Below, piece after piece: positions 1,224 through 31,054 of a DNA stretch of 37,257 bases (position 1 is the stretch's first letter; every line of letters starts with the position of its first letter). A program made the position numbers and the translations under genes. The notes beneath the pieces were generated by a model, which searched no databases, was not told where the DNA came from, and worked only from the letters and a program-made list of their open reading frames with translations. The DNA lies in IMG/VR virus record IMGVR_UViG_2917849834_000002. One strand, given 5' to 3'. The DNA is from a virus (taxonomy: Duplodnaviria; Heunggongvirae; Uroviricota; Caudoviricetes).

Positions 1224-2015
1224 TTATGGTTCGATCGCCGTTTTGAGCCGTTGTGTTGCTACATCAAAATAATGATCACTGGTTTCTATACCAATAAATT
1301 TGCGTCCTGCTTTCAGTGCAGCCACACCCGTTGTCCCTGACCCCATAAAAGGATCAAGGACTGTTCCGCCACTATTCACAGTCCTGACCAGTTCCGCCAT
1401 TAGTTCTTCTGGTTTTCCGGTCGGGTGCATTTTCTTTGACGGGATAACCGGGTACGTCATGCAGCCGTCGAACGGTCCCGAAGGTGATTTATCTAAATGG
1501 CCTTTGCTGCCCCAGACGATGTATTCGCACTGGTGCCGGAAATACCCGGTATGTGGTGTTCGTGACCCCCTCCCTTTGTTCCACGCAATGATGCCGCGCC
1601 ATGTAAAGCCACTGGCCTGAAACGCATCGGTTAAAGCTGGTAGTTGTCGCCAGTCAGTAAATACCAGGGCATAACCGCCCGGCCTGACTGCGCGGTGTGC
1701 CTGTGCCATCCATAATTGTGTCCAGTAAGCCCACGAACGGGCGTCCATGTTTTCACCCGCGAACCCATCAAAGCGGTGAAGGTTCTCGCCGTTCAGATAT
1801 TTTGCATGGCTGCCCTGGTTGGTGCGTCCGGCCTTGTGTGTCGCACCCGAACTGTAAGGCGGGTCAGTAATTAAGGCATCAATGCTTTCTGGCTCAATCA
1901 GCGGCAATATTTCCAGCGCATTTCCACGACAGAGCGTGGCATTGTCAGTCTGGTAAATCTTAGTGTGTTCCGGTGTATGTACTGGCTGGTGCTGGATTGC
2001 GATCCCCACGGTCAT
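1224..2015 (-). CDS. DNA methyltransferase (N6-adenine or N4-cytosine, beta class)
   Basis: 263 aa; DPPY catalytic motif (ITDPPYSSG) N-terminal to the AdoMet motif DPFMGSGTTGVAA; 5' end overlapped by the com-like ORF. Confidence 0.85.
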   Translation of the reverse strand: MTVGIAIQHQPVHTPEHTKIYQTDNATLCRGNALEILPLIEPESIDALITDPPYSSGATHKAGRTNQGSHAKYLNGENLHRFDGFAGENMDARSWAYWTQLWMAQAHRAVRPGGYALVFTDWRQLPALTDAFQASGFTWRGIIAWNKGRGSRTPHTGYFRHQCEYIVWGSKGHLDKSPSGPFDGCMTYPVIPSKKMHPTGKPEELMAELVRTVNSGGTVLDPFMGSGTTGVAALKAGRKFIGIETSDHYFDVATQRLKTAIEP

Positions 2016-2157
2016 AACTCCTCATGCGTGTGGGGTGCTCAATGGCTCTCGTTATCTGGTTAAGTGTTTTGCAGCGCGGACATTTTATTTCAATGTAGAG
2101 AAATGAGGCGCGGGCAAGTAGTTTGTTGCAATTTTTGCATCGTACATTTTGCGTCAT
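1960..2157 (-). CDS. com: Com-like zinc-finger translational regulator
   Basis: MTQNVRCKNCNKLL...IEIKCPRCK matches the Mu Com pattern (CxxC...CxxC); ATG at 2157 with SD GAGGTG 6 nt upstream; overlaps the methylase start as com overlaps mom in Mu. Confidence 0.75.
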   Translation of the reverse strand: MTQNVRCKNCNKLLARASFLYIEIKCPRCKTLNQITRAIEHPTRMRSYDRGDRNPAPASTYTGTH

Positions 2158-2284
2158 TTGCGGCACCTCTTGTGTGGTTACTGCTGCCGATATGATAGCA
2201 AATCGATCGTTTTTATCGATCGGATTTATTGCATCGATCTGTTATGCCTATTGCTTATGGGTGGTGCCCTCATTTGTGAGGACA

Positions 2285-2321
2285 CCAAAAAGAAAACCCG
2301 CAGTTTTTACGGTGCGGGTTT
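2285..2321 (-). terminator. Intrinsic terminator, probable 3' end of the hok-like mRNA
   Basis: 9-bp stem AAACCCGCA / TGCGGGTTT followed on the minus strand by UUUUCUUUUU. Confidence 0.5.
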
Positions 2322-2407
2322 GTTGTTCATGTCTGTCTGATAGGGTGCCTTATCGACCTTACCCTGGCAACCGATTGACGGGGGATTGCTCCCCCGTCGC
2401 GGTTTCC

Positions 2408-2548
2408 TTACTGCTTACACTGTAAGATCGCCGCAAACTCCGCTCCCCAGAAGCTCATCCGTATTTCACACAGCGAACCGTGTAGCATCCAGATGATGAG
2501 GATTGCCGTCACGCAGAACGTGATGGCTATAAGCGATTTTTGCGACAT
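2408..2548 (-). CDS. hok: Hok/Gef-family type I toxin (46 aa)
   Basis: Not in the ORF track (under 60 aa). Translation MSQKSLIAITFCVTAILIIWMLHGSLCEIRMSFWGAEFAAILQCKQ: one TM helix plus the conserved SLCEIR motif; SD AAGGAG 8 nt upstream. Confidence 0.7.
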   Translation of the reverse strand: MSQKSLIAITFCVTAILIIWMLHGSLCEIRMSFWGAEFAAILQCKQ

Positions 2549-2815
2549 AGCACTTGCTCCTTTTTTTGCAAAGGCGCTAAGCTCTTGCCCGCTTATTGAT
2601 TACGTTGTGAAACGCCCAGAGTTGAACATAAGGTTTAGTTGGGCCTTTTTACATCTGGCCTTCGTGTTTGCTGTCCAGCCATCAGTCGAAAGGTGTCCGC
2701 GTGAATTCTAGCCTGCTTTTTTTTCTTGCTTCAATACGTTGACTAATTTCAACACTCTGTTGTGCATATCCTGAACGCAGACATTATTCAGTCACGCATT
2801 TGATACATGCTTCCG

Positions 2816-2837
2816 CCGGCGTTCGCGCCGGTTTTTT
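2816..2837 (+). terminator. Intrinsic terminator with UUCG tetraloop; candidate 3' end of a Sok-like antisense RNA
   Basis: CCGGCG-TTCG-CGCCGG followed by TTTTTT on the plus strand, antisense to the expected hok mRNA leader. Confidence 0.45.
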
Positions 2838-3310
2838 GTCCTGTTGCTGCGTAGATCGTCATGTGCGATCGAGGCGCGGTATTGATCCTTTTTTCAGTTT
2901 AATTCTGGCTCTTGATTTTACGCAGGCCGCGCCGCGTCTGGCTTCTTTGTTTGATGGTTGTTTGATGCGATCCTTTAGTGATCGTTTTTCGTCTCGCGTA
3001 AAGCATGAAAACTCTTTTAATATCATGCTGTTTTATTGCTCCTGTCATTTGCGTGATCGTAAAAACCTCTCTGAAAACTGAAAAAAATTTCAAAGCGTGA
3101 AATTTCAGATCTTCGCTTTTCCCTCAGTTACTGCGCGGGCTGGCGGTCATTTTTGCACGGCAGAAAACTGAAAAAGTGTTTCGACACAAAACCCGCGGGT
3201 TGGAGGGGGTAGCGCGGTTTACGTCACCTCACGCTTTACGTCACACCGTTTACGCGGTATGTGCATACAGCGCCAGAATGGTATGCAGAACGCATTAATC
3301 AGGTGGTGGA

Positions 3311-3340
3311 TATGAAAACGCACGGTCGAAGCCGTGCGTT
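3311..3340 (-). terminator. Probable terminator of the late tail operon
   Basis: 9-bp stem AACGCACGG / CCGTGCGTT about 40 nt downstream of the last tail-operon stop, followed on the minus strand by UUUUCAU. Confidence 0.5.
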
Positions 3341-3378: not shown

Positions 3379-5076
3379 TCAGGCGATAAGGTCGCCGTAT
3401 TTTTCACGCAGACTCGTGGCCTGTTGGGCATCTGCGGCAAGTTCGCCGCTGTTCATCGGTGCGCCAGTGTTGCTGTGGGTGTGGTTTGCTGTATGTGTGG
3501 CCAGCAATTGAATCAGGTCCAGAATATCAGTCAGCAACGTCAGCAGGTTAAGCCCGGACTTTTCCCGCGAGCCGCTGCGACCAATAAACACTGTCGGGGC
3601 GGTAAACTCCAGACCGCCGTCCGCCCTGCATGTTCTGCGGCCTCCCACGTTTTCAGTCAGGTCGTGCTCAATCGTTGACGTTGCGCCTTTAAGTTTAGTC
3701 AGCAAATCCTGCGCCACCATCTGGATGTGTTCGCCGGCTGCGATCGCGTAATTGCCGGTAGTAAGGTGTTCTGTCTGGCCTGTCATCAGCTTGCTGGTAC
3801 CAAGAACACTGGTTATGTCGTTTGCCTGGACTGTTGTTGTTCTGGTTGTTGTTGTGCGTTCTTCCTGGTCGCTGTTAATGGTTCGCCTGGCAGAATGCTC
3901 CCTGATTTGCTGGTCGGTTTCCCTGTGCCAGCTTCCGTCAGTCGTGACACGCTGAAACACTTCTGCGCGCTGTTGCTGCAACTGTTCGCCGGGCTTTACA
4001 TCAGGCAGGTTATGTCCGGCAGGTAAGATTTGCCTGATGACAGGTTTATCCGGGCGGCCTTCAATACTGGATATTTCCACGATGGTGCCTGCCGGTGGGT
4101 AGGCAAAACATCCCGCCTCGCTACCAGCCATCGGGACAGGGAGCGGTACTGCCGGGTAAACAGGCGTATCGCTTTTGTCGTTGCCGTTCTCATCAAGCAG
4201 CTGCACGTCCACGGCGTAGCGTGGGCGGAAACTGTCGGCTACATCGCCCAGGGTGGCGGATTCCGTTGGTGCGACGACCCGCGCCAGTCTGGTGTGTAGT
4301 GTACCGCTGGCCAGTTCCGGAAACTGCGTTTCCATCTGTCTGCGCAATGGTGATTTGGAAACAGGGCTACCCGTGGCGGTGAGGCGCTCCCATGTCAGTG
4401 TCATTTTCTCGTTGTTGAGGGCTACACGGGTAATACGCCCGGCCGGAAGATTCACACCCGGCCGCACGGTTTCCATGAACATGATGTCGATGCTGTTTCC
4501 GCCGCTTTGCCCGAGTGTGTACTGTTGCGGAATATCGGGCATGGTAATGCTGGCAAACCGTGAATCAGCTGCGTTTCCCACAAATACAGAACCGTCCGGC
4601 ATGGGGTGCCAGACGTAATCGCTGATACTGAATGAGCGCCCCAGCTGGCTGAGTAACTGCGTCCCGCTGCCGCTGTGGGTGATGTAGGGAGTTGGTGTGC
4701 TGACATAATCCGCATCTGGCGTGATAAAAACGATACCGCTTTGTCGCCCCAGATTATCGAGCACATCCCGCAACGTCGGGTGTTGCATGGAGCAGGGGAA
4801 ATCAAAATCCAGCACAGCAGCTGCTTCACGGATAAAAAGGCGACGTGAGCCATTTTCGGCCGGTTGATCGCGTTCTATGTAGCCAGAGAAATAGCGCCAG
4901 GCCTCACCATTACGGCCGAGATCGATTTGCACCATTGCGCCGGCAAGGCTTTTTTCTGGTGACAGATTGTTAACAGAAACGAAGCCGCGACCGGCAGCAT
5001 TCAGGGTGAGAGCAAGGCTGATATCGGCAATTTCCACCTGTTCGCCATTGATCATGCAGCGTTGTATCAATTTCAT
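3379..5076 (-). CDS. Putative tail/baseplate hub protein (possibly gpD-like) with long C-terminal extension
   Basis: 565 aa, last gene of the late operon, ATGA-coupled to the upstream gene; N-terminal LALTLNAAGRGF and HPTLRDVLDNLG resemble gpD/Mu gp44 motifs from memory. Family assignment is weak. Confidence 0.35.
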   Translation of the reverse strand: MKLIQRCMINGEQVEIADISLALTLNAAGRGFVSVNNLSPEKSLAGAMVQIDLGRNGEAWRYFSGYIERDQPAENGSRRLFIREAAAVLDFDFPCSMQHPTLRDVLDNLGRQSGIVFITPDADYVSTPTPYITHSGSGTQLLSQLGRSFSISDYVWHPMPDGSVFVGNAADSRFASITMPDIPQQYTLGQSGGNSIDIMFMETVRPGVNLPAGRITRVALNNEKMTLTWERLTATGSPVSKSPLRRQMETQFPELASGTLHTRLARVVAPTESATLGDVADSFRPRYAVDVQLLDENGNDKSDTPVYPAVPLPVPMAGSEAGCFAYPPAGTIVEISSIEGRPDKPVIRQILPAGHNLPDVKPGEQLQQQRAEVFQRVTTDGSWHRETDQQIREHSARRTINSDQEERTTTTRTTTVQANDITSVLGTSKLMTGQTEHLTTGNYAIAAGEHIQMVAQDLLTKLKGATSTIEHDLTENVGGRRTCRADGGLEFTAPTVFIGRSGSREKSGLNLLTLLTDILDLIQLLATHTANHTHSNTGAPMNSGELAADAQQATSLREKYGDLIA

Positions 5077-5648
5077 GTTTTCCCTTCCTCTTTCGCGCTT
5101 CCGATGCCAACAGCATCCAGACCAGAGCCAACGGCATCATTGATTTTTTTCCAGAATGAACTTTGCGTATTCATGCCTTTGTCTGGCACCTGTTCGCTGC
5201 CGTTCTGTGTTTGCTGTTTTGCAATTGTTTTCTGTGAGCCGCTACGTGCAGATGCTTTCTCTGGTACGCTTAATTTTTCTCTGAGGGTAAAGGTGACCTG
5301 CCAGTGCATCTTGCCCTGTTGTTCCGTGGCATCGATGCCGCCGGAAAAAACACCCTGTCGCATATTAATCGCCTTAGCGGTAGCGTTGGCGATGCGGTAT
5401 GTTTTTTTGGCCCCGTTACCTTCAGTTGCTTCGGCAAGCTGAAAAATACGGGTCAGAATGGCCTCATCGTTAAAATCAATGACACCTGACACGCGCAGTT
5501 CTTTTGCCTTGTTTCCCTGCTGAGCGCTTGTGGTGCTGGTTGACTGCCCGGACATGTCTTTATCCGGTAGTTGCATGGTGGCACTGACGGTGATGTTGCG
5601 CAGCAGAATGGCCTCTCCGTCAAGCGCAAGAACAATTATCTGGGTCAT
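5073..5648 (-). CDS. Hypothetical late-operon protein, probably tail-associated
   Basis: 191 aa; SD AAGGGAAG upstream; stop overlaps the next start (ATGA). No recognisable motif. Confidence 0.3.
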   Translation of the reverse strand: MTQIIVLALDGEAILLRNITVSATMQLPDKDMSGQSTSTTSAQQGNKAKELRVSGVIDFNDEAILTRIFQLAEATEGNGAKKTYRIANATAKAINMRQGVFSGGIDATEQQGKMHWQVTFTLREKLSVPEKASARSGSQKTIAKQQTQNGSEQVPDKGMNTQSSFWKKINDAVGSGLDAVGIGSAKEEGKT

Positions 5649-6333
5649 GTAGTGCTTCCCTTAGTGATGAGAGTTCATCGCCGACAAACAGCATCACGGC
5701 GGTAAAAACCCACTCCGGGTGTGGAATGTTTTTTTGTATCAGTGCCGCAGTCTGATTAAGTGTTCCCTTGTTGCAAAAACGCCACACCGGACAGAATTGT
5801 TGTCTGAGTGCTGTCTCTCGCCCGGCAATTTCCTGCAAAATTTTATCTCTCGCTTCCCTGAACTGATGAAGTGACGATGACAATGTTTCCGGTGATGTGG
5901 CTGCTGGGGTGGCTGCCTGCGCAATGGTTGCCGCCAGTGTCATGCCACGGGTTGTCTGTGTTGACAGCGTTATCGGCTCCGGAAGTGATGTTGCCGGCCT
6001 GGCGGGGAGTTGCATTCTGCTGATGGCCAGCGAAAGCTGGCTGGAGATCATGCGGGACATTCGCCCCACCTCCGGCAACGGAAATGCACCTGAAAATTGC
6101 CTGGCGAGTGATAAAAATTCGTCAGCGGACGGGGCGCAGAGTAACAGCGCCACAACGTCCTTTTCTGTGCTTTCTGTCAGGTACGGTAAAAGTGCGGATA
6201 CCGCATTGTCCGGACTGAGATAACGCCCGGATGGTGTAATGTTTCCCGTATTTTCTGACCACGGATGAAGGCAGACCACTGAACAGCTGATGTTCATGGC
6301 TGCCGGGCGCAGAATGGCCTTTTCCCATTTCAT
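5620..6333 (-). CDS. Hypothetical late-operon protein, probably tail-associated
   Basis: 237 aa; start overlaps the stop of the upstream fibre chaperone (ATGA). No recognisable motif. Confidence 0.3.
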   Translation of the reverse strand: MKWEKAILRPAAMNISCSVVCLHPWSENTGNITPSGRYLSPDNAVSALLPYLTESTEKDVVALLLCAPSADEFLSLARQFSGAFPLPEVGRMSRMISSQLSLAISRMQLPARPATSLPEPITLSTQTTRGMTLAATIAQAATPAATSPETLSSSLHQFREARDKILQEIAGRETALRQQFCPVWRFCNKGTLNQTAALIQKNIPHPEWVFTAVMLFVGDELSSLREALHDPDNCSCA

Positions 6334-6902
6334 TCTGCCTTGCCCACCTGAAATGCGCGAATTTCTGCGAGATTATTCAGTTTAGTCAGTGTGTTTTTCA
6401 TCTCCCGCTGGCGCAGATAAATCTCATTGTTGCGGGTAACCTGTGCCTGAACCATTGCCGTCAGCAGTTCGTCCAGTTGCTGCACGGAGAGTTTCACCTG
6501 GCGGTTGTTCGCGTCGTTCCATGTCATAACGCTTCGTGCCGTGTCAGATTTTGCCAGCATCACCACCGGAGACAATCTGTCCACTGAAACAGGGCCGGCA
6601 TCCCAGATTCGCTTTTTCCATTCGAATGTGAACGACCGCGCTTCCTGTTCTGTGCGCCATGCTTCAATTTCCCGACGCTTGGCTGTTTTTGCTGCTTCCA
6701 GTATTTCCGGTGTCACAGTGAACGGAGCTATCTCCCCCCATTTACCGCTTTGCAGTTCCTGCCAGATTTTCTGGCCTGTTGGCGCCGTATCATCTGCCGT
6801 CGCTGTATACGGCAGTGCTTCGCCCATTCCCTCGAGCAGTACGTCACAGTCAATTGCACCACTTTCGATATAACGGGCGTTTTCGATTTTTTTTATTTTC
6901 AT
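6330..6902 (-). CDS. Tail fibre assembly chaperone (set 2)
   Basis: 190 aa immediately downstream of fibre 2; size and position typical of Tfa/gpG/Mu U chaperones. Confidence 0.55.
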   Translation of the reverse strand: MKIKKIENARYIESGAIDCDVLLEGMGEALPYTATADDTAPTGQKIWQELQSGKWGEIAPFTVTPEILEAAKTAKRREIEAWRTEQEARSFTFEWKKRIWDAGPVSVDRLSPVVMLAKSDTARSVMTWNDANNRQVKLSVQQLDELLTAMVQAQVTRNNEIYLRQREMKNTLTKLNNLAEIRAFQVGKAE

Positions 6903-6909
6903 AAATCAC

Positions 6910-8958
6910 CTATGCTGTACGTATAAACAAACCAATCATGACACCGAACGTATCAGCCGATCCCATCATGTCGCCAGACAATGCCCGGTACGTTCCCGGC
7001 AAACCTGCTCCTGAATCACGAAAATAAGCAGATACGTTGCCGTCGTATACGCCGGCCACGTTACTGGTGAAATGGCCCTTAAATTCAACCGCGCTAAGAC
7101 GCGAGCCAGGGTAATAATAACCCCGCATTATCCGGCGATTCTGGTCTGAAGAGTCACTTCCTCTGTATGCGGCCAGCACCAGACTGCCTGTGCCGTACCA
7201 GGCGTCTGTGGCTCCCGGAGCAATGCCTGACAGAAGATCGATAACGTTCTGAGTGGTAAATTTCAGTGATTCCCAGCCGATGAGATAGCCATTTCCACTT
7301 GTCCAGTAGCGGTTGTGATAAATATTGCCGTTAATGCCATAGAAAGTAATGACCTTTACTGTATGACGCGGGTTCGGCACTCCATACTCTGACTCAACCC
7401 AGCGAATACGAACCATTCCTTTGAACAGCACGTCCGGTATAATTTTATTGCTGCCGTCAACAAGATATTCTCCCGGTTCTGCCTTCCTTACCCACGCAAG
7501 AAAATCATTTTCTGAGTTAAACCTGATGACCTCGTCAGGGAGAAAGATATGACCAAAGCCGAACGCGCCAGGTATAGCCAGGCGGTCTGCCGTGCGGTCA
7601 TGAATGTCACCCTGCGGCTCCAGTGTGGCAGCTTTTCCAAGCTCAAGGATCGTGTGCATGTCTGCCAGTGTTTCCTGCATCAGCAGAGTGCGCGCCATTT
7701 CTGACAGTGTGGAAAGCGAAGCATTCCCTTCCGTATCAAAGCACAATAATTTGTCTGCCCGCGCTTTCAAATTGCTGATGGCGGTTAACACGTCACTGAG
7801 AGGTTGCTTGCCTGCCAGCGCGTTGGTGACTGTTGTTGCAAAGTTCGGGTCATTGCCCAGCGCCGCCGCCAGTTCGTTCAGCGTGTCCAGGGCTTCGGGA
7901 GATGAATCCACCAGTGCAGCGAGCAGTTTGCGGACAAACGCCGCATTTGCGATTTCTGTCCCCGTGGCATCATCAGGCGGTGTCGGGGTTTTCGGAGCGC
8001 CGGTAAAGACCGGACTGTACAGGGTGGCTCTGGCGTTGATTAACGTTAAGAAGTACGCCTCATTTGTCTTCAGGTTATCCCAGCCAGTCAGATAACCACC
8101 GCTGAGAGGCCAGTAACGGTTGTAATAAACATCTCCGTTAACGGTGTATAAAATAATGGCTTTTGCCATATGTTGCGGTTCTGGTGGATTGCGGTTCGCC
8201 TCCAGAAACCGGATATTAATTACACCACAGTAGCCACCGGGTAACACACCATTGGCCCCCTGTACAGAATACTCTCCGGGCGTTGCCTGCTTGACCCATG
8301 CTAGGAGGTCTTTTTCTGTATCAAACCGGATAAGCTCGCCTGGCAGAAACATGTGACCAAAACCAAATGCGCCCGGTATCGCCAGCCGGCCTTCCGTGCG
8401 GTCGTAAATATCACTCTGCGGCTCCATTGTGGCGGCATTTTTCAGTCCCAGATTATCACGGGATTCCTGTTGCGCCTCTTCACCTTCTGCCGCAATTTCT
8501 GACAGGTGGTTAGCCGTTTTCAGCATTGTTTTCAGTTCCGGATAAATATCCATCTGCCAGCTCTGTGGGGGAACCGTGATTTGTGCAGCCTGAGCCATAC
8601 CACTGTAAGTGATTGCAAAATTACGAAGAAGAGTTTCCCCCACATGTTTGTGGTGAACAGGAGTTTTTATTACACCGCATAGCGTGCCACTTGCCTGGTG
8701 AACAAGACAAATCCAGTCATAACTGAATTCGGCGTCTTCAGTGACTGCACCGCTACATACAATGCTGTTTGGGGTCAGTTGTCCGTAGGTGAGTTTGTTT
8801 ACGGTATAAGTAATTTTTTCCGGTGGAATAATATTATCTTCCGGGCTGGGGTCGCGATTCATTAGTGCAAATACGATGGCATCCGGCCGGGCAGGTAAAT
8901 TGCCGGCAATGCATTTTGCAATCCATTTTTCAAATGCTTTCGTTAATAATGCGCTCAT
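6910..8958 (-). CDS. Tail fibre protein 2 (mosaic, with internal duplication)
   Basis: 682 aa; N-terminus homologous to fibre 1; contains the P2 gpH-type motif ALDTLNELAAALGNDPNFATT; two diverged copies of a roughly 125-aa segment (aa ~177-300 and ~445-570). Confidence 0.8.
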   Translation of the reverse strand: MSALLTKAFEKWIAKCIAGNLPARPDAIVFALMNRDPSPEDNIIPPEKITYTVNKLTYGQLTPNSIVCSGAVTEDAEFSYDWICLVHQASGTLCGVIKTPVHHKHVGETLLRNFAITYSGMAQAAQITVPPQSWQMDIYPELKTMLKTANHLSEIAAEGEEAQQESRDNLGLKNAATMEPQSDIYDRTEGRLAIPGAFGFGHMFLPGELIRFDTEKDLLAWVKQATPGEYSVQGANGVLPGGYCGVINIRFLEANRNPPEPQHMAKAIILYTVNGDVYYNRYWPLSGGYLTGWDNLKTNEAYFLTLINARATLYSPVFTGAPKTPTPPDDATGTEIANAAFVRKLLAALVDSSPEALDTLNELAAALGNDPNFATTVTNALAGKQPLSDVLTAISNLKARADKLLCFDTEGNASLSTLSEMARTLLMQETLADMHTILELGKAATLEPQGDIHDRTADRLAIPGAFGFGHIFLPDEVIRFNSENDFLAWVRKAEPGEYLVDGSNKIIPDVLFKGMVRIRWVESEYGVPNPRHTVKVITFYGINGNIYHNRYWTSGNGYLIGWESLKFTTQNVIDLLSGIAPGATDAWYGTGSLVLAAYRGSDSSDQNRRIMRGYYYPGSRLSAVEFKGHFTSNVAGVYDGNVSAYFRDSGAGLPGTYRALSGDMMGSADTFGVMIGLFIRTA

Positions 8959-9515
8959 TATTCTTTATTCTCATTAATAGTTTGCGACAGCTCCGGCCAC
9001 GCGATCGCGGCATACGCTGTTTTATCCGTAATCAGGCTAAAATCCATCACCTGCAATTCCTTTGCGTAAATACGATATGCTCTCAGCTTTTCTTTATCTT
9101 CGTCGCTGATTAACCCCAGCAACAGGTCTTTTTCCCAGTCAGCAGTTAACCGGCTTACATCCTTGAGCTTCCTCACTCGCTCATCTTCTGCCTTTTTACC
9201 GTAATCAAATATGAATTTACCATCCCGGTAAAACCAGTAACCCGATATATCAATTCGTCGGTTAGCTGTGTTATCTGTCACTTCAATCACGCTCCTGTTT
9301 CTGGGGTTAATTGACGCAACATCTTTGCCAACCCAGGTAACTTTTCCTGTATCCAGATATTCGACTTTTAATGTGTCAGGTGAAAAATCTTTCTGAATCT
9401 CATACCAGTTTTCACCAGATTCTGCATACAACCACTCGACGCCATATCTTTTAGTTAACTCATATTGTTCGGCTGTTTTCGGATTGCCCGACGTAATATT
9501 TTTTAAGTGCAACAT
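8958..9515 (-). CDS. Tail fibre assembly chaperone (set 1)
   Basis: 185 aa directly after fibre 1 (TAATG overlap with the next start); Tfa-like size and composition. Confidence 0.65.
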   Translation of the reverse strand: MLHLKNITSGNPKTAEQYELTKRYGVEWLYAESGENWYEIQKDFSPDTLKVEYLDTGKVTWVGKDVASINPRNRSVIEVTDNTANRRIDISGYWFYRDGKFIFDYGKKAEDERVRKLKDVSRLTADWEKDLLLGLISDEDKEKLRAYRIYAKELQVMDFSLITDKTAYAAIAWPELSQTINENKE

Positions 9516-9517
9516 AA

Positions 9518-11176
9518 TTACATACTCGCTACGTTATACCAGGTTCCATTAATCAGTTTCTGAAGGGGGCGGATAAACCACCCGTCGGCAGAGTTATCCC
9601 AGTCTCCGTAGCAGTAGCCACCCACACTGACATAACCCGGGGGAGCCAGGTTTGAGCCTGTACTGCCCATCTGTTGATAACCGCCAAGACGCATATCCTG
9701 TACTCCCATTTTATTTTGCAGGTAAGATGACAGCCATCCTCCCCATGTGCTGCCGTACACGTTACCGTCAGCCGCAAGCCTTGCAGAGCCGTTGCCTGAC
9801 TGTAATTCACCTGTTGCGACACTATTTCCATGCACCAGTGAACCGCCACCGGTGGTCACTTTGTGTGACATGGCAATATCACCAGTCCGCAGGTTAATTG
9901 AGAAAGGACGCAGAGGGCCAATATTGCCATTTTCACCCTGTCCTTCCGTGGTGGGGATAAGATGAAGGCTGTCTTCTGAGCGACGAAAAATCAGACCAAA
10001 GGCGCCATCGAAAATCCTCAGCGCATTAACGTCACGAATTTTCAGTTCCCCGGTCATGGTATCGCCACCTCGCTGAACGGCGCCTTCTGCCTTATCAACG
10101 GTGGGCTTTAGTCCGACGTTTTCAATAAACAGTGGTTTGTCGGGGATGTCGCTGCCGTTGCGATTTTTCGCAAGGCGGGCATTTGCGTTATCCATTGCGA
10201 TTTTTACCGCTTTTGACGTGGCGGCACGGTCTTCTGCATCACTGTCAGTGGCGTTACTGTACTGAGCGAATCCTTTTTCGTTCAGTGTGGCATCCGGGTG
10301 CCTGCGGGATTTTTCGTGTTCTGCCAGTGCATTGCTTTGTTCTTCGTCGGGTGTCTCCGGACGTAAATCCTGTGAGCCGTCTGCTGTCAGTTTTGCAAGC
10401 GGTGCAACAAAATGCCGAAAGCCATTCCCGTCTGTGTAGGATGCATGTTCCGGGCGGGCGCTGAATGTGAAAACCGTATTCCATTCGCCAGTAACAAATC
10501 CCTGCCAGCTTGCATCAATCCAGATGGTGTCCCCGACCGTTGCGCGCAGGCTGTAAGGTTCGCGCAGACTGACGCGCAAACCTCCCACATAACCAATCCC
10601 CGCGGCAACAATGGCGGTGCCGTTCTGATAGCTCACCTGAAAACCGTCCTCCAGAAAAGCGGCTTCACCGTAGTGATCAAACGCCAGCAGTCTGCGGGCT
10701 TCATCCATTCCCGCCAGGCGGGCAGTGAAATCAATCTGCCAGACATCAGCACTGACATCGATATGCATCGCTGCTGCCGCACCGTCAAACTCCATGGAAA
10801 ACGTGCGGATCAGATTGTTTCCCTGTACACCGTTCGCGGTTTTAATTTTTTGCTGGCAGGGGGTGTGCGCAATCATACAGAGCACGCCGCTTTCTTCGTT
10901 CAGCAGGCCAATCCAGTTGTATTCGAAGTCGCCGATTGTGGTATCCAGAATGATGGAAAATGCGGTTGCATTCGGTGACAGGAGACCGTACTGGGTGACC
11001 GGTGCGCGATACTGGATCAGGGTTTCATCAGGGAGCGTTTCGTCGCGGGGGATCTCTGCAGACTCATCCAGTCCCGGAATATATGCAAAAACAAATGTAT
11101 CCGGGCGCGCAGGTTTCCCGCTGATGATCTGATTTGCGCACCAGTGTTCGTATTGTTCAGTAATAATCGTACTCAT
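9518..11176 (-). CDS. Tail fibre protein 1 (P2 gpH-like C-terminal two-thirds)
   Basis: 552 aa; AEHEKSRRHPDATLNEKGF and C-terminal KLINGTWYNV match P2 gpH motifs as I recall them; start overlaps the gpI-like stop. Confidence 0.85.
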   Translation of the reverse strand: MSTIITEQYEHWCANQIISGKPARPDTFVFAYIPGLDESAEIPRDETLPDETLIQYRAPVTQYGLLSPNATAFSIILDTTIGDFEYNWIGLLNEESGVLCMIAHTPCQQKIKTANGVQGNNLIRTFSMEFDGAAAAMHIDVSADVWQIDFTARLAGMDEARRLLAFDHYGEAAFLEDGFQVSYQNGTAIVAAGIGYVGGLRVSLREPYSLRATVGDTIWIDASWQGFVTGEWNTVFTFSARPEHASYTDGNGFRHFVAPLAKLTADGSQDLRPETPDEEQSNALAEHEKSRRHPDATLNEKGFAQYSNATDSDAEDRAATSKAVKIAMDNANARLAKNRNGSDIPDKPLFIENVGLKPTVDKAEGAVQRGGDTMTGELKIRDVNALRIFDGAFGLIFRRSEDSLHLIPTTEGQGENGNIGPLRPFSINLRTGDIAMSHKVTTGGGSLVHGNSVATGELQSGNGSARLAADGNVYGSTWGGWLSSYLQNKMGVQDMRLGGYQQMGSTGSNLAPPGYVSVGGYCYGDWDNSADGWFIRPLQKLINGTWYNVASM

Positions 11177-12989: not shown

Positions 12990-13332
12990 CAAGAGATACC
13001 GTAAAAGTCAGGGGTTCAAAAAAATCTTCGGTGTGGGCGCTAATCAGCAGGCGACCAGAAAGCGGGGTTTCTTCTGTCACACTGACCGTGCCAGGTGTAA
13101 TACGCTCATCATCTTCAATCAGCAGTGTCATCTGCATCATGATGTCGGCACGAAGCGTCGGGCTTTTTTCAGCCAGCAGGCGCGTTGCCAGTCCGCTCTC
13201 AATGATGGCGTGCTGGCAGTCCTGGGCAATACTTTCCCTGTTGTTGCACAATACCGGCTCACTGGCGCTGTTCAGCGTGAGATTGCGACCGGTGATGAGC
13301 AAATCAATGTAAAGCGGTTTATCAGTATGCAT
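12982..13332 (-). CDS. Small baseplate protein in the gp25/gpW position
   Basis: 117 aa from ATG at 13332 (SD GGAG), overlapping the tape-measure stop by 8 nt; assignment is by position only. Confidence 0.35.
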   Translation of the reverse strand: MHTDKPLYIDLLITGRNLTLNSASEPVLCNNRESIAQDCQHAIIESGLATRLLAEKSPTLRADIMMQMTLLIEDDERITPGTVSVTEETPLSGRLLISAHTEDFFEPLTFTVSLDD

Positions 13333-15418
13333 GTAGCTCCATCCACTCGTTGAGGCGGGCAGGGGATGGATCCTGCACATTGACGTTGACCACGCGACGG
13401 GAGTTGTCGATTGTGGTCTGGTTTTCGCTGTTGTTCTGCATTTCTGCCGCAATGCCACCCGGCCCCGCACTGATGGCTTTACCGCCGGTTAATACGGAGC
13501 CTTCGCCACTTCCTGTGCTTTCTGATGTGCCGATGTTAACGCCGGGGATCATGTTGAGTTTGTCCACAATCCAGCCCCATGAATCACTGAAGGACTGTTT
13601 CACCAGTTCCCAGAGGTTACTGAAAATGTTCAGGATGCCGCCGGCGATATCCTTCAGGGCGTCCAGAGGTGAATGCGTGGAAAAATAGTTAACCAGTGCA
13701 TTCCAGCCGTCCTGGATTGTGTTCCATGCATTGCCGAACCATGCCCCCATACTGCCGACCATTTCAGCCACCCACTGAAAGGCGGCGGTATCCATCAGCG
13801 CGGCTTTAATCTCATCCCAGCGGGTGATCAGGAAATAAATGCCCACGCTCAGCGCAGCCAGTGCCAGGATGATTAATGTGATGGGGCTGAAAAGTAACTG
13901 TGTTGCAATTGCGGCTCCGCTGGTGACTGCGGTGTAGATTTTCATTGCTATGCCGGCGGCACCCAGCGCAACAGAATAAAGCCAGAGTCCGGCGCGCTGT
14001 AATTTCAGCAGCGCCAGCTGAATTTTTGCTTTGACGTTGTATGTTCCCATAGCAATGGACATGGCCAGATACAGCGCCCTGACCGTTCGGGCAACTACAG
14101 TGAATGCCCACATGGTAGCCGTCAGTGTGCGTTTCAGCAGAATGAGAATCTTCAGAGGTGCAACTGCTGCCAGCCAGACCAGCCGCAGTCCTGTCCAGAC
14201 AAACTTCGCCACACCCACCATAATGTTGACAACGGCACCCACTGCGGCAATGCCCAGCAGGGCGGCAGACAGTAAACCAATAGCCCGTGTGATATTGGGA
14301 TACAGACGTAACCAGGCAACAAAGGATTTACCGCCTTCGTTGCTTTTCTGGATAAACGGGTACAGAACAGGCAGCAACTGCGTGCCGATTTCGATGCGAA
14401 TGCCGTTAATAATTGCGGCGGCCTGTTCCCATGGATCAGCCATGGCCTGCGCCATTTCGACAGCCTTATCCATACCTTTGATATTGCCCAGCGTGGCGAT
14501 ATTCTTTTCAAGTCCGCCAATGTCCGCATTGAGTAATTTAATCATGGCCACAGCTTCATCGGAGCCAAAGGCGCTTTTCAGCAAATCGGAATCAGCCACT
14601 TTTGACAGATCACCAAATTTGCCCCTGATAAGTTTCATGATCTCGACAACACTTTTCATCGTGCCGTCTTTATTCACGAAATTAAGCCCCAGCTTTTTCT
14701 GGGCGCTGCCTACTGCGGCAAGAAATGCCTTGTACTTTGTCCCGGCCTCGCTGCCACTCATGGTGGCCTGCAGTTGTCCCAGCACGGCGAACTGTTCAGC
14801 CGCATCAATACCGGCCGCTTTTGCACTGGCACCCAGCGTGGTGAACGCCGCTGACATGTTATCGCCGGTTGTTTTAAACATTTGCACGGCGGTGGCGGTT
14901 TGCCCGGCGACCTGCTCCACCCATTTACTTTTTCCCATGGCATCAGCCTGGTCTTTAAAGATGCCGTACATGGTGCCCATGTAGGCGGTAATGGTCTGGC
15001 TGCTGGATTTGGTTGCTGCTGCCACCGTTGCTGATGCGGTGGTGAAGCGGGACAGCTCATCGTCAGTTAACCCGGCAATGGCTGACTGGATGTCGTAAGA
15101 AGCACGCACAAAATCCTGCGCAGCCCCGCCGTATTCCATAGTGAAATCAACGGCGGCGCGGCTGAGTTTACGCAATCCGGACTCTGCGACGCCCAGTGAT
15201 TTCACCTCACCGAGCGCCCTGTCCATTTCAATGGCTGGCATCAGTGCCCCCTGAATGGCAGCACCCACTCCCCAGAGCGCAGCGCCTCCGGTAGCAATGT
15301 CCCGAAAGGCTCCCCGACTTGTTGCAGCAAATCCCTGAACCTGTCGCCCGGCTGCACGCAACGGCCTTGTCAGGCGGTCTGTCAGTTCAAGAAGTAATTC
15401 AAGGCGCTGTTGTGACAT
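13322..15418 (-). CDS. Tail tape measure protein
   Basis: 698 aa, Ala/Gly-rich with central hydrophobic segments; directly downstream of the chaperone frameshift ORFs. Confidence 0.8.
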   Translation of the reverse strand: MSQQRLELLLELTDRLTRPLRAAGRQVQGFAATSRGAFRDIATGGAALWGVGAAIQGALMPAIEMDRALGEVKSLGVAESGLRKLSRAAVDFTMEYGGAAQDFVRASYDIQSAIAGLTDDELSRFTTASATVAAATKSSSQTITAYMGTMYGIFKDQADAMGKSKWVEQVAGQTATAVQMFKTTGDNMSAAFTTLGASAKAAGIDAAEQFAVLGQLQATMSGSEAGTKYKAFLAAVGSAQKKLGLNFVNKDGTMKSVVEIMKLIRGKFGDLSKVADSDLLKSAFGSDEAVAMIKLLNADIGGLEKNIATLGNIKGMDKAVEMAQAMADPWEQAAAIINGIRIEIGTQLLPVLYPFIQKSNEGGKSFVAWLRLYPNITRAIGLLSAALLGIAAVGAVVNIMVGVAKFVWTGLRLVWLAAVAPLKILILLKRTLTATMWAFTVVARTVRALYLAMSIAMGTYNVKAKIQLALLKLQRAGLWLYSVALGAAGIAMKIYTAVTSGAAIATQLLFSPITLIILALAALSVGIYFLITRWDEIKAALMDTAAFQWVAEMVGSMGAWFGNAWNTIQDGWNALVNYFSTHSPLDALKDIAGGILNIFSNLWELVKQSFSDSWGWIVDKLNMIPGVNIGTSESTGSGEGSVLTGGKAISAGPGGIAAEMQNNSENQTTIDNSRRVVNVNVQDPSPARLNEWMELHAY

Positions 15419-16305: not shown

Positions 16306-16409
16306 TTTTGCTCCTTATGAGGTTGCTGAGGTTTGCGCAGCCAGTACCACAGTGCCCGGATAATTTTCCAGGCAATGGCGGCAGCTTTTTGTTCCCTGCG
16401 GGACAGCAT
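16302..16409 (-). CDS. 35-aa amphipathic basic peptide between holin and endolysin
   Basis: Not in the ORF track. MLSRREQKAAAIAWKIIRALWYWLRKPQQPHKEQK; SD AAAGAGGAG 8 nt upstream; its TGA overlaps the endolysin ATG. Confidence 0.3.
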   Translation of the reverse strand: MLSRREQKAAAIAWKIIRALWYWLRKPQQPHKEQK

Positions 16410-16414
16410 TGCTG

Positions 16415-16711
16415 TTACTCCTCTTTGTTCTCTTTCTCGCCCAGCTTCCGGCGCATATGACGCAGGAAGATTTCAACAATCTGGTAACCGGCAACGCCCA
16501 TTGCGGTGCCTGCGCCGGCAATGGCCAGTGGGTCAAGGTTCGGGTAGCGAACCAGCAGGGCAGCGGCAGAAACACCCAGCGCGCTCCCCAGCAGGGTTCG
16601 GCCCACAAACAACCGCAGCGTAATCGGCTCTGCGCCAGCCAGCACCCGACTTGCGGCAGCGATTCCGCCCAGAATGCCCAGAGTGATAATGGTGCGCTCA
16701 TGCTCCTGCAT
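16415..16711 (-). CDS. Holin (three predicted TM segments, charged C-terminus)
   Basis: 98 aa; three hydrophobic stretches then RHMRRKLGEKENKEE; immediately upstream of the endolysin. Confidence 0.6.
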   Translation of the reverse strand: MQEHERTIITLGILGGIAAASRVLAGAEPITLRLFVGRTLLGSALGVSAAALLVRYPNLDPLAIAGAGTAMGVAGYQIVEIFLRHMRRKLGEKENKEE

Positions 16712-16714
16712 GGT

Positions 16715-17170
16715 TCACCCCATCAGTCCGCGCACGTCGTTCTCTGAGAGAACGGGCACGCCGTTGATACGCACAAAGTCAGGGCTTGCCACCACGTACT
16801 TGATTTTGTGCGTGGTCAGATCTGCGCTCTCGGTGTCAATGCTTAACAGGCCGGAAAGCATCAGCTCACAACCGAAGGCTTCAACGCGGATTTCTTCGGT
16901 TCCCGTATTGGCGTAAAACACAAAATCCATTGGCGGCAGGTCACGCCACGATCCCGCCTGAGCAGCCACTTCCCCGAGCTGGTTAAAGCTGCGGGTACTC
17001 ATTTCGATTTCACCTTCGGCACTGACAGGGCCGCGCAGTTTGCCGTCAGGGATGCCACGGGTTTTGGCAACGGCGCTTTCATCGCTGATGTCCAGTGAGA
17101 TGCTTTTCACATGGATATCCGTTCCACCGATAAAAGTGTCAAACGCCATGCCGTTAATGCGGGTCGTCAT
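16715..17170 (-). CDS. Tail tube protein
   Basis: 151 aa directly downstream of and ATGA-coupled to the sheath gene. Confidence 0.55.
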   Translation of the reverse strand: MTTRINGMAFDTFIGGTDIHVKSISLDISDESAVAKTRGIPDGKLRGPVSAEGEIEMSTRSFNQLGEVAAQAGSWRDLPPMDFVFYANTGTEEIRVEAFGCELMLSGLLSIDTESADLTTHKIKYVVASPDFVRINGVPVLSENDVRGLMG

Positions 17171-18315
17171 GCGTTTTCCTCCAGAGATTTATCCAGCTGA
17201 ATGCCCACTTTGATGGTTTTAGGGCAGGCGTAAGGGCGGACGACAATGCTGATGCTGACCGTCTTTTCGTTCTGCCAGGTGATAACCACGTCGCCTTTCC
17301 GGGGCGATTTCACTTCGCCCGGAAACGTGATGCCGTTAATTTGCATGGATTTCGCCATGGCACGCAGTGGGCGGGCAAACAGCGTTTCATGTGCGGCAAT
17401 GCTGCCCGGCGTGCTGTTCAGCGAGCGGTCGGCAATCTTGGGGATGGCCATCAGCCGCACGCGGCGCGCCACCTTATCAGCAATGCGGACATGCTCAATG
17501 ACGTTGTAGTCCCCGCCTTCCACCTCAAGTGTTACACCGTCAGCCCAGTAAAGGCCGTCATAGTCGGCATACCACATGGGCACGCTGTAGCGGGCGGTTG
17601 CCAGTGCCTGCAGAGTGTCGAGATCAATTGCCTGCCCTGTGCTGTCTTTCGGGCGTTCTGTGGTTTTCAGTGCGGACAGGGGCCCGGTTGCCACACGTGC
17701 TGGACTGTCAGCAATGGTGACGGCGCTGTTACACAGGCGACCGGCAAGAACGCCCGGTTCAAATCCAAAAATCTCCGGAACCAGCATGACCTGCGGGGCT
17801 GCAATGCCTTTCTGTAGTGCGGTCAGTTCGGCAACGTATTCCGCCCAGGTTTTACTGTTGTCGTTGGCGGCGATGGTCAGGATGAACCAGATGCGGCGCT
17901 GATATTTATTGATGATGGTCTGACGTAACGCCTGTATGGCGTTGATGTCATCCTGCGTGCTGACCGGCTCGGTGATCACCACGCCTTCAACTGAAACAGT
18001 TTCCTGAGCCGCCAGTATGGCGTTCTGCCATACCTGGCAGGCTGGCGTTGCTTCTTTGCCTTTGCCGGCTTCCGGCAGAACGGCAACATAGAAAAAGGCA
18101 TTCTGTCCGGCATTGGTCAGTGCAGACTGAAGGAAGTTTTTCAGCGGGCTGGCGTTCTTTCCCAGTAGCTCATCCAGATCGCTGTTGGCATTAACCGGCA
18201 GAACCTCACCTTTGTTGTTTTGTGCATTGCCCACAAACAGCAGCGTATTTTCCACGCCGTCCGGTGAACTGCTGAATGTGTTGTACTGTTCAATCGTGAC
18301 AGATGGCCATGTCAT
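17167..18315 (-). CDS. Tail sheath protein
   Basis: About 383 aa from ATG at 18315 (SD AGGAGA 6 nt upstream; the ORF extends to 18447); size and position before the tube gene. Confidence 0.6.
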   Translation of the reverse strand: MTWPSVTIEQYNTFSSSPDGVENTLLFVGNAQNNKGEVLPVNANSDLDELLGKNASPLKNFLQSALTNAGQNAFFYVAVLPEAGKGKEATPACQVWQNAILAAQETVSVEGVVITEPVSTQDDINAIQALRQTIINKYQRRIWFILTIAANDNSKTWAEYVAELTALQKGIAAPQVMLVPEIFGFEPGVLAGRLCNSAVTIADSPARVATGPLSALKTTERPKDSTGQAIDLDTLQALATARYSVPMWYADYDGLYWADGVTLEVEGGDYNVIEHVRIADKVARRVRLMAIPKIADRSLNSTPGSIAAHETLFARPLRAMAKSMQINGITFPGEVKSPRKGDVVITWQNEKTVSISIVVRPYACPKTIKVGIQLDKSLEENA

Positions 18316-18334
18316 GGTTTGTCTCCTGATTTTG

Positions 18335-19048
18335 TTATCTCGTGCCGCCGTAATGCAGGCTGCGCAGCTGCGCTTCCAGAATGCGGGCAAATTCAGCATC
18401 GCTGGCTCCCAGAAATGCGCGGGAGGGGATTTTGATTTCCCATACACGTTTTTTCTGCTCGCCTTTCAGAATGCTGATCACCAGTCCGGCCTGCGCCATA
18501 CTCATGTTTTCCATAATCCATTTCAGAGAAGGCTTTCTGCGTCCCCTGCGTCCGGTTTTTTTGCTGACTGCGCCGACGGGGGCCCGAAAGCCCAGAGAAA
18601 GAAGGCGTTCTGCCTGCCGTCGTGTGGCGGGACGGGTGCGCATGGCTTCGCTGTCCCGGCGTTTTGTGGCGCGGCCTTTGATGGTTGCGCCGTGCTGTTG
18701 CACCCACGCGACCGCCCCACCATGAGAGCCGGTGTTGTAATCCCCTTTTTTGAAGAAAAGGCGGACACTTTTCCCGCTGCCGTCAACCCTGATGGCCAGC
18801 AATTTCGGCAGTCCCAGCAGCATTTTGTTTTTATACCTGCCGCTGGCTTTATCCGGTCTTTTTCGTGGTGCCCAGGCTGCCCCCTCCGGTGTTCGCTGTG
18901 CTTTCACATTGCGTCGTGCAGCCGGTCTCAGGCCGTATTTCGCAATGCGAACCAGCAGCTTTCTGGCCTTTGCCGGCGGAAGTTCTGCCTCTCTGATGGC
19001 GCGACGAACCTGCCGGAGTTGTGACTCGTTAATCACGGGGCTCGTCAT
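18335..19048 (-). CDS. Virion morphogenesis / tail completion protein (gpS-like)
   Basis: 237 aa, basic; positioned between the R-like and sheath genes; ATGA-coupled to the R-like gene. Confidence 0.45.
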   Translation of the reverse strand: MTSPVINESQLRQVRRAIREAELPPAKARKLLVRIAKYGLRPAARRNVKAQRTPEGAAWAPRKRPDKASGRYKNKMLLGLPKLLAIRVDGSGKSVRLFFKKGDYNTGSHGGAVAWVQQHGATIKGRATKRRDSEAMRTRPATRRQAERLLSLGFRAPVGAVSKKTGRRGRRKPSLKWIMENMSMAQAGLVISILKGEQKKRVWEIKIPSRAFLGASDAEFARILEAQLRSLHYGGTR

Positions 19049-26734: not shown

Positions 26735-27694
26735 TTACTCCTTGTCCATTGCGTACAGCCCATTAACCAGAGCAAACTGTGGCACCCCGTCCGCGATGAA
26801 AGTCGCATTAACTCCGCAGGCTTCGCGGATAGCGGGTGCCACAATCTCCGCCCCGCCACCGACAACCATCACCCGCCCGTAACCCGAAAAAACCGCCAGC
26901 GCGCGGATCACGCGTTGTTTCAGTGTTTCTTCCTTTTCACGAATAACCGCCATCAGGCTGGCGTAATGCGCGTCATTGTGGATGTGCTGGCGCAGCCAGG
27001 CTTCATCATGGCGATGTTCGATAATGGTATTGGCGATGTGGTGACTGGTGCGCATACCGTTAGTGGCCATCACCGACAGTACGGCATCGGCCATCAGAGA
27101 AACGCCTACGTGTGGATCGCAAAACACCTGGCTGATACCTGCCAGTTGCCCCTGAACCTTTGCCACATCCAGCGTGGTTCCGCCCAAATCCACAATCAGC
27201 AGGGATTCAAACGGACTCATGTCAGCCAGTGCCTTAAAGCCAGCCGGAATGGATTCAGGCATAACCCGTACGTTACGGATAGTGAATGCTTCGCCGTTCT
27301 GGTACTCCACCGGGCGCATGACATTCGCTTTTTTGCGGTTGATGTTGGCCATGTCCGGCTGTGCGTTTGTATCGAAATACTCGCTCAGTGGCAGGGTGAC
27401 AACCACATCCACTTCCTGTGGTGTGATGCCTGATTTGACCAGCGCGTGATGAATGGCAATTACATTCACATCGCTGTACTGGTATTGCGTGTCGGTCGTC
27501 TGGACAAAGCGATCGCTGACCGGATCAAAACCATAGCGCACGCCATCAAGCATGTAGTTCGCGGGCTGCGTGCCACCGAACGGCGCAGACCATTCCGACT
27601 TGAAGCTGTTCGGGCTGATGGCGTTGCGGCGTTCGCCGTTCTCAGTCCATGCCAGCTTGATGTTGGTGGAGCCGTCGTCGATACAAATTTTCAT
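26735..27694 (-). CDS. parM: ParM/StbA-family actin-like segregation ATPase
   Basis: 319 aa; MKICIDDGSTNIKL, LIVDLGGTTLD and VMVVGGGAE align with R1 ParM motifs from memory; SD AAGGAAAAG upstream. Confidence 0.88.
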   Translation of the reverse strand: MKICIDDGSTNIKLAWTENGERRNAISPNSFKSEWSAPFGGTQPANYMLDGVRYGFDPVSDRFVQTTDTQYQYSDVNVIAIHHALVKSGITPQEVDVVVTLPLSEYFDTNAQPDMANINRKKANVMRPVEYQNGEAFTIRNVRVMPESIPAGFKALADMSPFESLLIVDLGGTTLDVAKVQGQLAGISQVFCDPHVGVSLMADAVLSVMATNGMRTSHHIANTIIEHRHDEAWLRQHIHNDAHYASLMAVIREKEETLKQRVIRALAVFSGYGRVMVVGGGAEIVAPAIREACGVNATFIADGVPQFALVNGLYAMDKE

Positions 27695-30982: not shown

Positions 30983-31054
30983 GCTGCAATTCTCTTTACT
31001 ACAGATGTGCGAAGGCCTCCCGCCGCAAGGTGCAGGAAAGGCCCGGAACAGGAA

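Follow-up and report, generated by a model that had tools for sequence, protein, structure and literature searches.

Homologues of HP1 orf33, orf34 and orf35 close the tail operon of an HP1-like enterobacterial prophage and probably encode its central baseplate

Introduction

The IMG/VR virus record IMGVR_UViG_2917849834_000002, a stretch of 37,257 nucleotides that was analysed as a whole and is called the window below, represents an enterobacterial prophage of the HP1-like type (Peduoviridae). Positions 3,379 to 6,333 carry three genes for proteins of 237, 191 and 565 amino acids (aa). By sequence comparison the three are homologues of HP1 orf33, orf34 and orf35, the standard module of HP1-like prophages in its standard position. 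The 565-aa protein is very probably (a probability of about 0.85) a baseplate hub resembling gp27, gpD and Mu gp44 that is fused to a gp5/gpV-like spike, the module then being the central baseplate of a contractile tail.

The central conclusion has been published, since the gpD–gpV fusion of HP1 is in print and the families carry annotations. Hwang et al. (Viruses 2023, PMC10612066) used HHpred to annotate ACA1, an HP1-like phage. They equated gp46 with HP1 orf33 and gp47 with HP1 orf34, and gp47 also matched PF06995 (GpU) at 15% identity, which they regarded as uncertain. The gpD-like gp48 and the gpV-like gp49 matched the N-terminal and the C-terminal domain of HP1 orf35, respectively, and the fusion of gpD and gpV in HP1 was stated there in 2023 (PMC10612066). 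Existing annotation also names the orf35 homologues 'baseplate protein' (RefSeq/PHROG-based) and the orf34 family 'baseplate complex protein' (PGAP). The three-gene module is an ordinary, already known feature of a common prophage type.

Results

Identity and position of the module

BLASTP aligned the 237-aa protein over its full length with HP1 orf33 (E 3e-19, 25% identity), the 191-aa protein with orf34 (E 6e-39, 47% identity) and the 565-aa protein with orf35 (E 3e-132, 38% identity). Among the PHROGs, the 565-aa protein matched phrog_2258, 'baseplate protein' (1.8e-232), the 191-aa protein phrog_1398 (1e-64) and the 237-aa protein phrog_1677 and phrog_31292, both function-unknown entries. 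A first-pass annotation, made from the sequence alone, had listed three open reading frames (ORFs) of these sizes as genes of unknown family. All three ORFs exist, on the minus strand, and all three match described families, the 191-aa protein scoring 182 bits with PF25759.

HP1 is ordered from the tape measure gene (orf27) through the wedge genes orf28-30, the fibre gene orf31 and the chaperone gene orf32 to orf33, orf34 and orf35 at the genome end, and the annotated arrangement in K139, phiO18P and ValB1MD-2 is identical. All three genes were present in 80 of 80 related IMG/VR loci. In the window the same order is kept: the module follows a fibre and its chaperone, and its genes are the last of the late operon, which closes at a terminator-like hairpin. 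The first-pass annotation was right that a hub gene behind the fibre genes fits neither the P2 nor the Mu order; it is no oddity of this prophage, however, because this is the canonical order throughout the HP1-like branch of Peduoviridae. The P2 order is V W J I H G ... FI FII E T U D. Relative to P2, the wedge/fibre block has its place after T (the tape measure gene) and before the U/D-like genes, with V and D fused into one gene; both phages end their late tail genes with the hub gene.

The sheath, tube and wedge genes of the same operon are also of the HP1 type and not of the P2 type (DUF2586, Phage_HP1_Orf24, DUF2590 in the gpW position, Baseplate_J and Tail_P2_I), and a tail chaperone and two fibre and chaperone pairs accompany them. 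Family scans of the window ORFs further identified gpQ/P/O/N/M/L-type head genes in a divergent arrangement, the tail completion genes gpR and gpS, and, for replication and control, a GPA replication protein, an Ogr/Delta late activator and an integrase.

DNA copies of about 90% identity were found in 66 of 5426 complete E. coli genomes. One viral contig in IMG/VR (L017) is 100% identical, and proteins that share 96% identity or more with the 565-aa protein belong to a cluster of 956 sequences. In the phage collection, megablast gave no match to the region, the relatives there being recognisable at the protein level only. In the RefSeq entry of Pseudomonas phage phi3 (L086, 406-3196), an orf33-like ORF and the hub part of an orf35-like gene are left unannotated.

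A probable hub and spike in one chain

The 565-aa protein was modelled by AlphaFold2 as a monomer from an alignment of 40 family members. The predicted local distance difference test score (pLDDT) was 82-94 over residues 1-230 and moderate over residues 255-350 and 511-564. A Foldseek search of the PDB returned fused hub-spike proteins as the best matches: Pvc8 of Photorhabdus (9qgm, 6e-17), the spike of the Algoriphagus extracellular contractile injection system (7aef, 9e-17), VgrGs of type VI secretion systems (T6SS) (9jg9, 3e-16; 8gra; 4mtk) and Afp8 (6rbk, 7e-14). Proteins that consist of a hub only were also retrieved, namely Mu gp44 (1wru, 2e-10), the MuSo2 43-kDa protein (3cdd, 5e-10), the Mu baseplate (9ki1_G, 2e-9), the pyocin R2 hub (6u5h, 2e-5) and T4 gp27 (1k28_D, 2.5e-5). 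With this pLDDT and these matches, the N-terminal ~230 residues were assigned the gp27/gpD/Mu gp44 hub fold. Structure prediction, one of the checks put forward in the first-pass annotation, thus bore out its description of a gpD-like N-terminus with a long extension, the extension being the spike (a probable OB domain, a probable beta-helix and a C-terminal His-Thr-His motif). Its remark that the tail module otherwise has no identifiable hub or spike also holds, as none of the other window ORFs scanned matched a hub or spike family.

The two-part reading is independently supported by relatives whose hub and spike are encoded by two genes. Residues 2-229 of the 565-aa protein are covered in alignments with the separate hubs PV94 gp46, SMHB1 gp48 and ACA1 gp48, and the part from residue 241-244 onward (241-557) in alignments with the separate spikes PV94 gp47, SMHB1 gp49 and ACA1 gp49. 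This split places the junction of the two parts in the linker TATGSPVSKSP (233-243).

In the spike part, residues 316-368 aligned by phmmer to residues 414-467 of VgrG1, its OB region, among the PDB sequences (E about 0.2). The OB region of the model has a pLDDT of 50-74, and the fold alignments to VgrG and Pvc8 are full-length. A PF22178 match is precomputed for some relatives of the protein.

The C-terminus carries an HxH motif as found at the gpV apex, His-Thr-His (HTH) at H532-T533-H534, which is putatively metal-binding. H532 and H534 are invariant in all 40 family members and T533 is kept in at least 90% of them. HTH is also present near the C-terminus of P2 gpV ('LHTHKHPG'), HP1 orf35 and SMHB1 gp49; ACA1 gp49 has HGH, and the PV94 spike ends without an HxH motif. 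Browning et al. (2012) reportedly located the iron site at the tip of the gpV spike in its HxH motif. In the model of the 565-aa protein, unlike in gpV, HTH is located in a loop between helices 511-530 and 543-564 (pLDDT about 80). In a trimer, the C-terminal hairpins would be expected to form a six-helix tip, and the HTH motif may hold a metal as in P2 gpV.

Mass spectrometry of virions, a further check named in the first-pass annotation, has already been performed for ACA1. The homologues of orf33, the hub and the spike were all detected, with 2 spectra for gp46, 5 for gp48 and 2 for gp49 (PMC10612066).

Observations that weigh against the central-baseplate reading

Several observations speak against the assignment. 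In the 565-aa model the pLDDT is below 50 over residues 353-500, and the beta-helix is thus not modelled in the monomer. Sequence scores for the spike domains stay under the family cut-offs: the Phage_base_V OB domain of Pfam at residues 310-347 reaches 17.2 bits versus 23.8, Gp5_trimer_C at 393-445 reaches 15.2 versus 30.9, and the NCBIfam entry TIGR01646 (vgr_GE) at 263-363 reaches 21.8 versus 121.8. None of the three families could be linked in sequence to P2 gpU, gpD or gpV by HMMER or by hhalign against the single sequences (probability 0.1-0.2%), and unfiltered hmmsearch in both directions, with HP1-type profiles against all P2 ORFs or window ORFs, returned nothing. For the 565-aa protein and gpD in particular, no match to the Pfam family Phage_GPD was obtained, the hhalign probability with P2 gpD was 0.2% and HMMER against the P2 ORFs was nil.

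For the two smaller proteins, ACA1 gp47, the orf34 homologue, was undetected in the virion spectra and its link to gpU was uncertain to the authors themselves (PMC10612066). An orf33 gene is apparently absent from PV94 and SMHB1 by profile search, orf34 there directly following the fibre/chaperone genes. The orf33 profile misses ACA1 gp46, the link to which rests on HHpred at 16% identity, and the predicted structure of the 237-aa protein does not retrieve even its own relatives in BFVD.

The profile comparisons with gpU, gpD and gpV had also been suggested in the first-pass annotation, and they came out empty. The failed gpU comparisons are uninformative rather than negative, because the hub, with its unambiguous fold similarity, fails the same tests. 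The claim that the three genes are the hub and spike candidates stood for the 565-aa protein; no such assignment could be demonstrated for the 237-aa or the 191-aa protein.

The 191-aa protein and the place of gpU

The 191-aa protein is firmly a member, by sequence, of PF25759, 'Bacteriophage HP1 ORF34 baseplate complex protein' (182.2 bits versus a cut-off of 27, E 9.7e-54, profile positions 2-177 of 180), which matched 22 of 22 diverse members of the orf34 family. Its C-terminal tail is longer than in HP1 or K139. The gene is located directly upstream of the hub-spike gene and overlaps it, and gpU is likewise directly before gpD in P2 and seven P2-like phages, one gpU homologue being annotated 'tail - tube initiator'. 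By size and gene position, the 191-aa protein may be the functional counterpart of P2 gpU, a tube initiator forming a ring between the tube/tape measure and the hub.

No match to PF06995 was found for the 22 diverse orf34 members in a Pfam scan at E <= 10. When the orf34 alignment was compared by hhalign with an 11-member GpU alignment, the probability was 0.2% (E 0.26), the N-termini being in plausible register. The GpU alignment was assembled from ten phage records; a search of the P2 gpU locus gave only copies of at least 98% identity. Searches of the PDB sequences with phmmer and with profiles of the orf33 and orf34 families gave only chance-level matches.

The null results with GpU, the lack of a reciprocal HMMER match and the absence of the ACA1 homologue from the virion spectra speak for a different role. 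The 191-aa protein could possibly be another central-baseplate part, such as a 'glue' or stabiliser between hub and wedge like pyocin PA0627/P2 gpX or XM1 gp12, or a tape-measure-associated factor, with the initiator role falling to the 237-aa protein or to a 128-aa ORF of the tail operon (16315-16701). In XM1 a 250-aa tube-like ring protein and a 188-aa Ig-like stabiliser precede the hub and the spike, an order and sizes that parallel the 237, 191 and 565 aa here (PMC10457771). Against this alternative, the 237-aa model is alpha/beta and not tube-like, Pfam curators name the 191-aa family a baseplate complex protein, and the HHpred link of the ACA1 homologue to PF06995 is in print, although uncertain (PMC10612066). 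The position immediately before the hub gene, like U before D in every P2-like phage inspected, and the register of the N-termini in the single hhalign alignment with GpU also speak for a gpU counterpart. We consider the alternative role possible but on balance improbable.

The 128-aa ORF itself had no match in Pfam, PHROGs or NCBIfam and is the sole other tail-operon gene without an assignment, which leaves it an alternative candidate for a missing baseplate function. It lies beside an M15 peptidase gene (113 aa, endolysin-like in PHROGs) in the segment 15964-16701 on the minus strand, between the tube gene and the tail chaperone gene.

The 237-aa protein

The orf33 family is small, an HMMER profile search of 1.84 billion proteins giving 173 clusters at 50% identity. 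The 237-aa protein had no match in Pfam, NCBIfam or PADLOC. The orf33 profile found homologues in HP1, K139, ValB1MD-2, phiO18P and phi3; its apparent absence from PV94 and SMHB1 indicates that orf33 is not universally required. The predicted structure has no recognisable fold and, given that it retrieves none of its own relatives, may be wrong. The longer members of the family contain no Pfam domains and no informative fusion. One representative (P0306) is a deletion chimera of an orf33 N-terminus and an orf35 C-terminus, and another (P0317) bears an uninformative 300-aa Ala/Gly-repeat N-terminal extension on an orf33-like domain. A Cys/His hydrolase, considered for invariant H23 and near-invariant C66, was rejected, as HP1 orf33 lacks this Cys and no hydrolase fold was found.

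Only two observations bear on the function of the 237-aa protein: its gene invariably overlaps orf34, and the ACA1 homologue was detected in virions at a low count. Our best guess is that it is a low-copy baseplate component or a connector between hub and wedge.

A serious alternative, to which we give a lesser though real chance, is that the 237-aa protein serves in assembly, as a factor or chaperone acting on the hub-spike or on the fibres encoded before it, and is present in virions just as traces. Its gene directly follows the fibre chaperone gene with an ATGA overlap, PV94 and SMHB1 keep orf34, hub and spike with no homologue of it detected, it evolves fast (25% identity to HP1 versus 38-47% for its neighbours), and the ACA1 homologue gave 2 spectra only. 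Against this alternative, the gpJ and gpV homologues of ACA1, which are certainly structural, likewise gave 2 spectra each (PMC10612066). The gene also stays with orf34 in ACA1, where a diversity-generating retroelement cassette separates both from the fibres, and the protein has no similarity to known fibre chaperone families.

More speculatively, the 237-aa protein might be a genuine structural baseplate part with a fold unlike that of any viral structure, solved or predicted, serving as hub-wedge connector in place of the LysM proteins (P2 gpX, pyocin PA0627, T4 gp53), and where gpV has a beta-structured apex, the spike might end in a six-helix bundle that presents a metal site of HxH type. 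This combination is rather unlikely; if true, the HP1-type tail would represent a structurally distinct minimal contractile baseplate.

Resemblance to VgrG and the cargo explanation

PGAP labels a 90%-identical E. coli copy of the 565-aa gene (H41, NZ_OZ547217.1 681343-684423) 'type VI secretion system Vgr family protein', and T6SS VgrGs are among the best fold matches. Acquisition of a T6SS VgrG by the prophage is nevertheless refuted as family membership: TIGR03361 scores 16.7 bits versus a cut-off of 186.35, TIGR01646 also falls short (see above), the tail operon in which the gene sits is that of a phage and is complete, the phage proteins HP1 orf35 and K139 orf39 are the true homologues of the protein, and the phage-tail-like Pvc8 and Afp8 are equally best fold matches. 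The resemblance reflects a shared hub-spike architecture, and the distance from the TIGR03361 cut-off makes the 'Vgr family' name misleading for a phage tail gene.

The operon-end position beside accessory genes (com, DNA methylase) and the lack of functional annotation in PHROGs for two of the three proteins could suggest that the module is a moron, a defence cassette or a lysogenic-conversion cassette, carried as non-structural cargo. This explanation is effectively refuted by the hub-spike fold of the 565-aa protein, the absence of PADLOC matches, the conservation of the module among HP1-like phages and in the related loci, the detection of homologues in virions (PMC10612066) and the fact that the tail would otherwise be left with no hub or spike.

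Gene junctions and the end of the late operon

The coordinates of the module and of the tail genes around it are collected in Table 1. The first-pass annotation had described a chain of ATGA overlaps leading from the second fibre chaperone through all three genes. Two of the junctions are of this kind, whereas the 237-aa and 191-aa genes share a longer overlap. A Shine-Dalgarno-like AAGGGA is found upstream of the ATG of the 191-aa gene at 5648, and this start is supported by the Pfam profile, which aligns from residue 2 of the ORF. The overlapping stops and starts suggest that the module is translationally coupled.

The module closes the late operon, as had been proposed: a terminator-like hairpin follows the stop codon of the 565-aa gene, and a terminator is annotated at the corresponding position in K139. 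The RNA fold of the hairpin is -14.7 kcal/mol (z = -3.68; 0 of 200 shuffles were as good). A consensus terminator scan did not report it because its T tract is short. The hairpin probably ends the late transcript.

Table 1. Positions in the window of the three-gene module, its parts and junctions, and tail genes of the same prophage.
Feature	Position	Strand	Basis or remark
237-aa HP1 orf33-like gene	5620-6333	-	BLASTP to HP1 orf33
191-aa HP1 orf34-like gene	5073-5648	-	PF25759
565-aa HP1 orf35-like gene, probable hub-spike (stop codon included)	3379-5076	-	BLASTP to HP1 orf35; AlphaFold2 model and Foldseek
Probable hub domain, residues 1 to ~235, gp27/gpD-like	4372-5076	-	pLDDT; alignments of hubs of split phages; hub-only PDB matches
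Probable spike part, residues 244-565 (probable OB domain, probable beta-helix, helical hairpin)	3382-4347	-	alignments of spikes of split phages
His-Thr-His H532-T533-H534, putative metal-binding apex motif	3475-3483	-	codons translate as HTH
ATGA overlap, stop of DUF4376 fibre chaperone / start of 237-aa gene	6330-6333	-
Overlap of 237-aa and 191-aa genes, 29 nt, not ATGA	5620-5648	-
ATGA overlap, 191-aa / 565-aa genes	5073-5076	-
Terminator-like hairpin	3317-3340	-	9-bp GC-rich stem, ~40 nt past the stop of the 565-aa gene
DUF4376 fibre chaperone	6330-6902	-	precedes the 237-aa gene
Tape measure	13322-15418		tail operon
Tube, Phage_HP1_Orf24	16715-17170		HP1-type tail
Sheath, DUF2586	17167-18447		HP1-type tail; phrog_907 tail sheath

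Other features of the window

Two tandem tail-fibre/chaperone cassettes occupy 6330-11176 on the minus strand, one with a 552-aa fibre and a gpK-type chaperone and the other with a 682-aa fibre and the DUF4376 protein. An identical type of tail-collar domain forms the N-terminus of both fibres, and the two cassettes with this common domain suggest a dual host specificity.

On the other side of the module, the late-operon terminator is separated from the com gene by ~1.2 kb (2170-3300) that contain no ORF with a family match. The plus strand of this segment has several terminator-like hairpins, among them those at 2376-2399 and 2815-2832. A Mu Com-type zinc ribbon gene (1960-2166, minus strand) is followed by an N6/N4 DNA methyltransferase gene (1224-2015) and by a GemA-like ORF (1-993) that runs off the window. 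The place of the com and methylase genes is the com/mom position of Mu, with a methylase instead of Mom.

Two Rfam matches on the minus strand, a C4 antisense RNA (31342-31429, 80 bits) and an isrK Hfq-binding small RNA (31465-31539, 70 bits), are located within or beside a 205-aa Ash-like ORF (30979-31596). The HP1/P2-like prophage thus contains an antisense immunity cassette of the P1/P7 type. A ParM/StbA actin-like plasmid segregation gene (26735-27694, minus strand; StbA_N, 1.8e-82) adjoins the GPA replication gene (27771-30623). The same prophage carries an integrase gene (36238-37257, plus strand). Phages that integrate do not usually have a partition gene, and its presence hints at a phage-plasmid lifestyle or a mosaic.

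Discussion

For the central-baseplate reading we propose the following arrangement. A trimer of the 565-aa protein would form a hub ring beneath the tail tube and adapt the six-fold symmetry of the tube to the three-fold symmetry of the spike, whose OB domain and beta-helix would constitute the needle. The C-terminal helical hairpins would gather three H-x-H motifs at the tip, where a metal ion could be held as in P2 gpV. Sheath contraction would then drive the hub-spike assembly through the outer membrane.

Three genes that would pass as 'hypothetical' in a common enterobacterial prophage type can thus be named as tail parts, which is of little importance beyond annotation. The same applies to the name 'type VI secretion system Vgr family protein' in RefSeq, which describes an architectural resemblance and not membership in a T6SS. 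The residual interest is in the structure of the HP1-type central baseplate and in the roles of orf33 and orf34. The 'minimal baseplate' phages XM1 and MMNM were considered as structural precedents and set aside; they are not HP1-like and have no detectable sequence in common with the module.

The closest systems are HP1 orf33-35, K139 orf37-39 and phiO18P gp44-46, in which all three genes are homologous, the order and the place at the operon end are the same, the overlaps are similar, the last gene is followed by a terminator, and one fused gene encodes hub and spike. HP1 differs in that the identity is just 25-47%, and the present prophage has two fibre/chaperone cassettes ahead of the module. 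ACA1 (gp46-gp49), PV94 and SMHB1 have the same module, but hub and spike are separate genes there, split at about residue 230-243 of the 565-aa protein.

P2 appears to have the same functional set in gpU-gpD, at the end of its F operon, and gpV: a tube-hub adaptor, a gp27-like hub and an OB/beta-helix spike with a C-terminal HTH. A gene for ~160-190 aa directly precedes the hub gene, and the hub gene is last, in both. Unlike in P2, the hub domain has only ~230 aa versus the 387 aa of gpD, V is fused to D, and wedge and fibre genes intervene between tape measure and module; sequence homology is not detectable. The 565-aa protein also has a helix of ~30 residues after HTH, whereas P2 gpV ends about 15 residues after it. 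With VgrG, Pvc8 and Afp8 the 565-aa protein appears to have in common the hub-OB-helix succession in one chain, and these are its best full-length structural matches (Foldseek E 6e-17 to 1e-12). It differs from them in its smaller hub, its phage context and sequence scores far under their family cut-offs, and probably also at the tip, where a helical hairpin with HxH would take the place of the blunt beta-helix end that is capped by a PAAR protein in the VgrG type.

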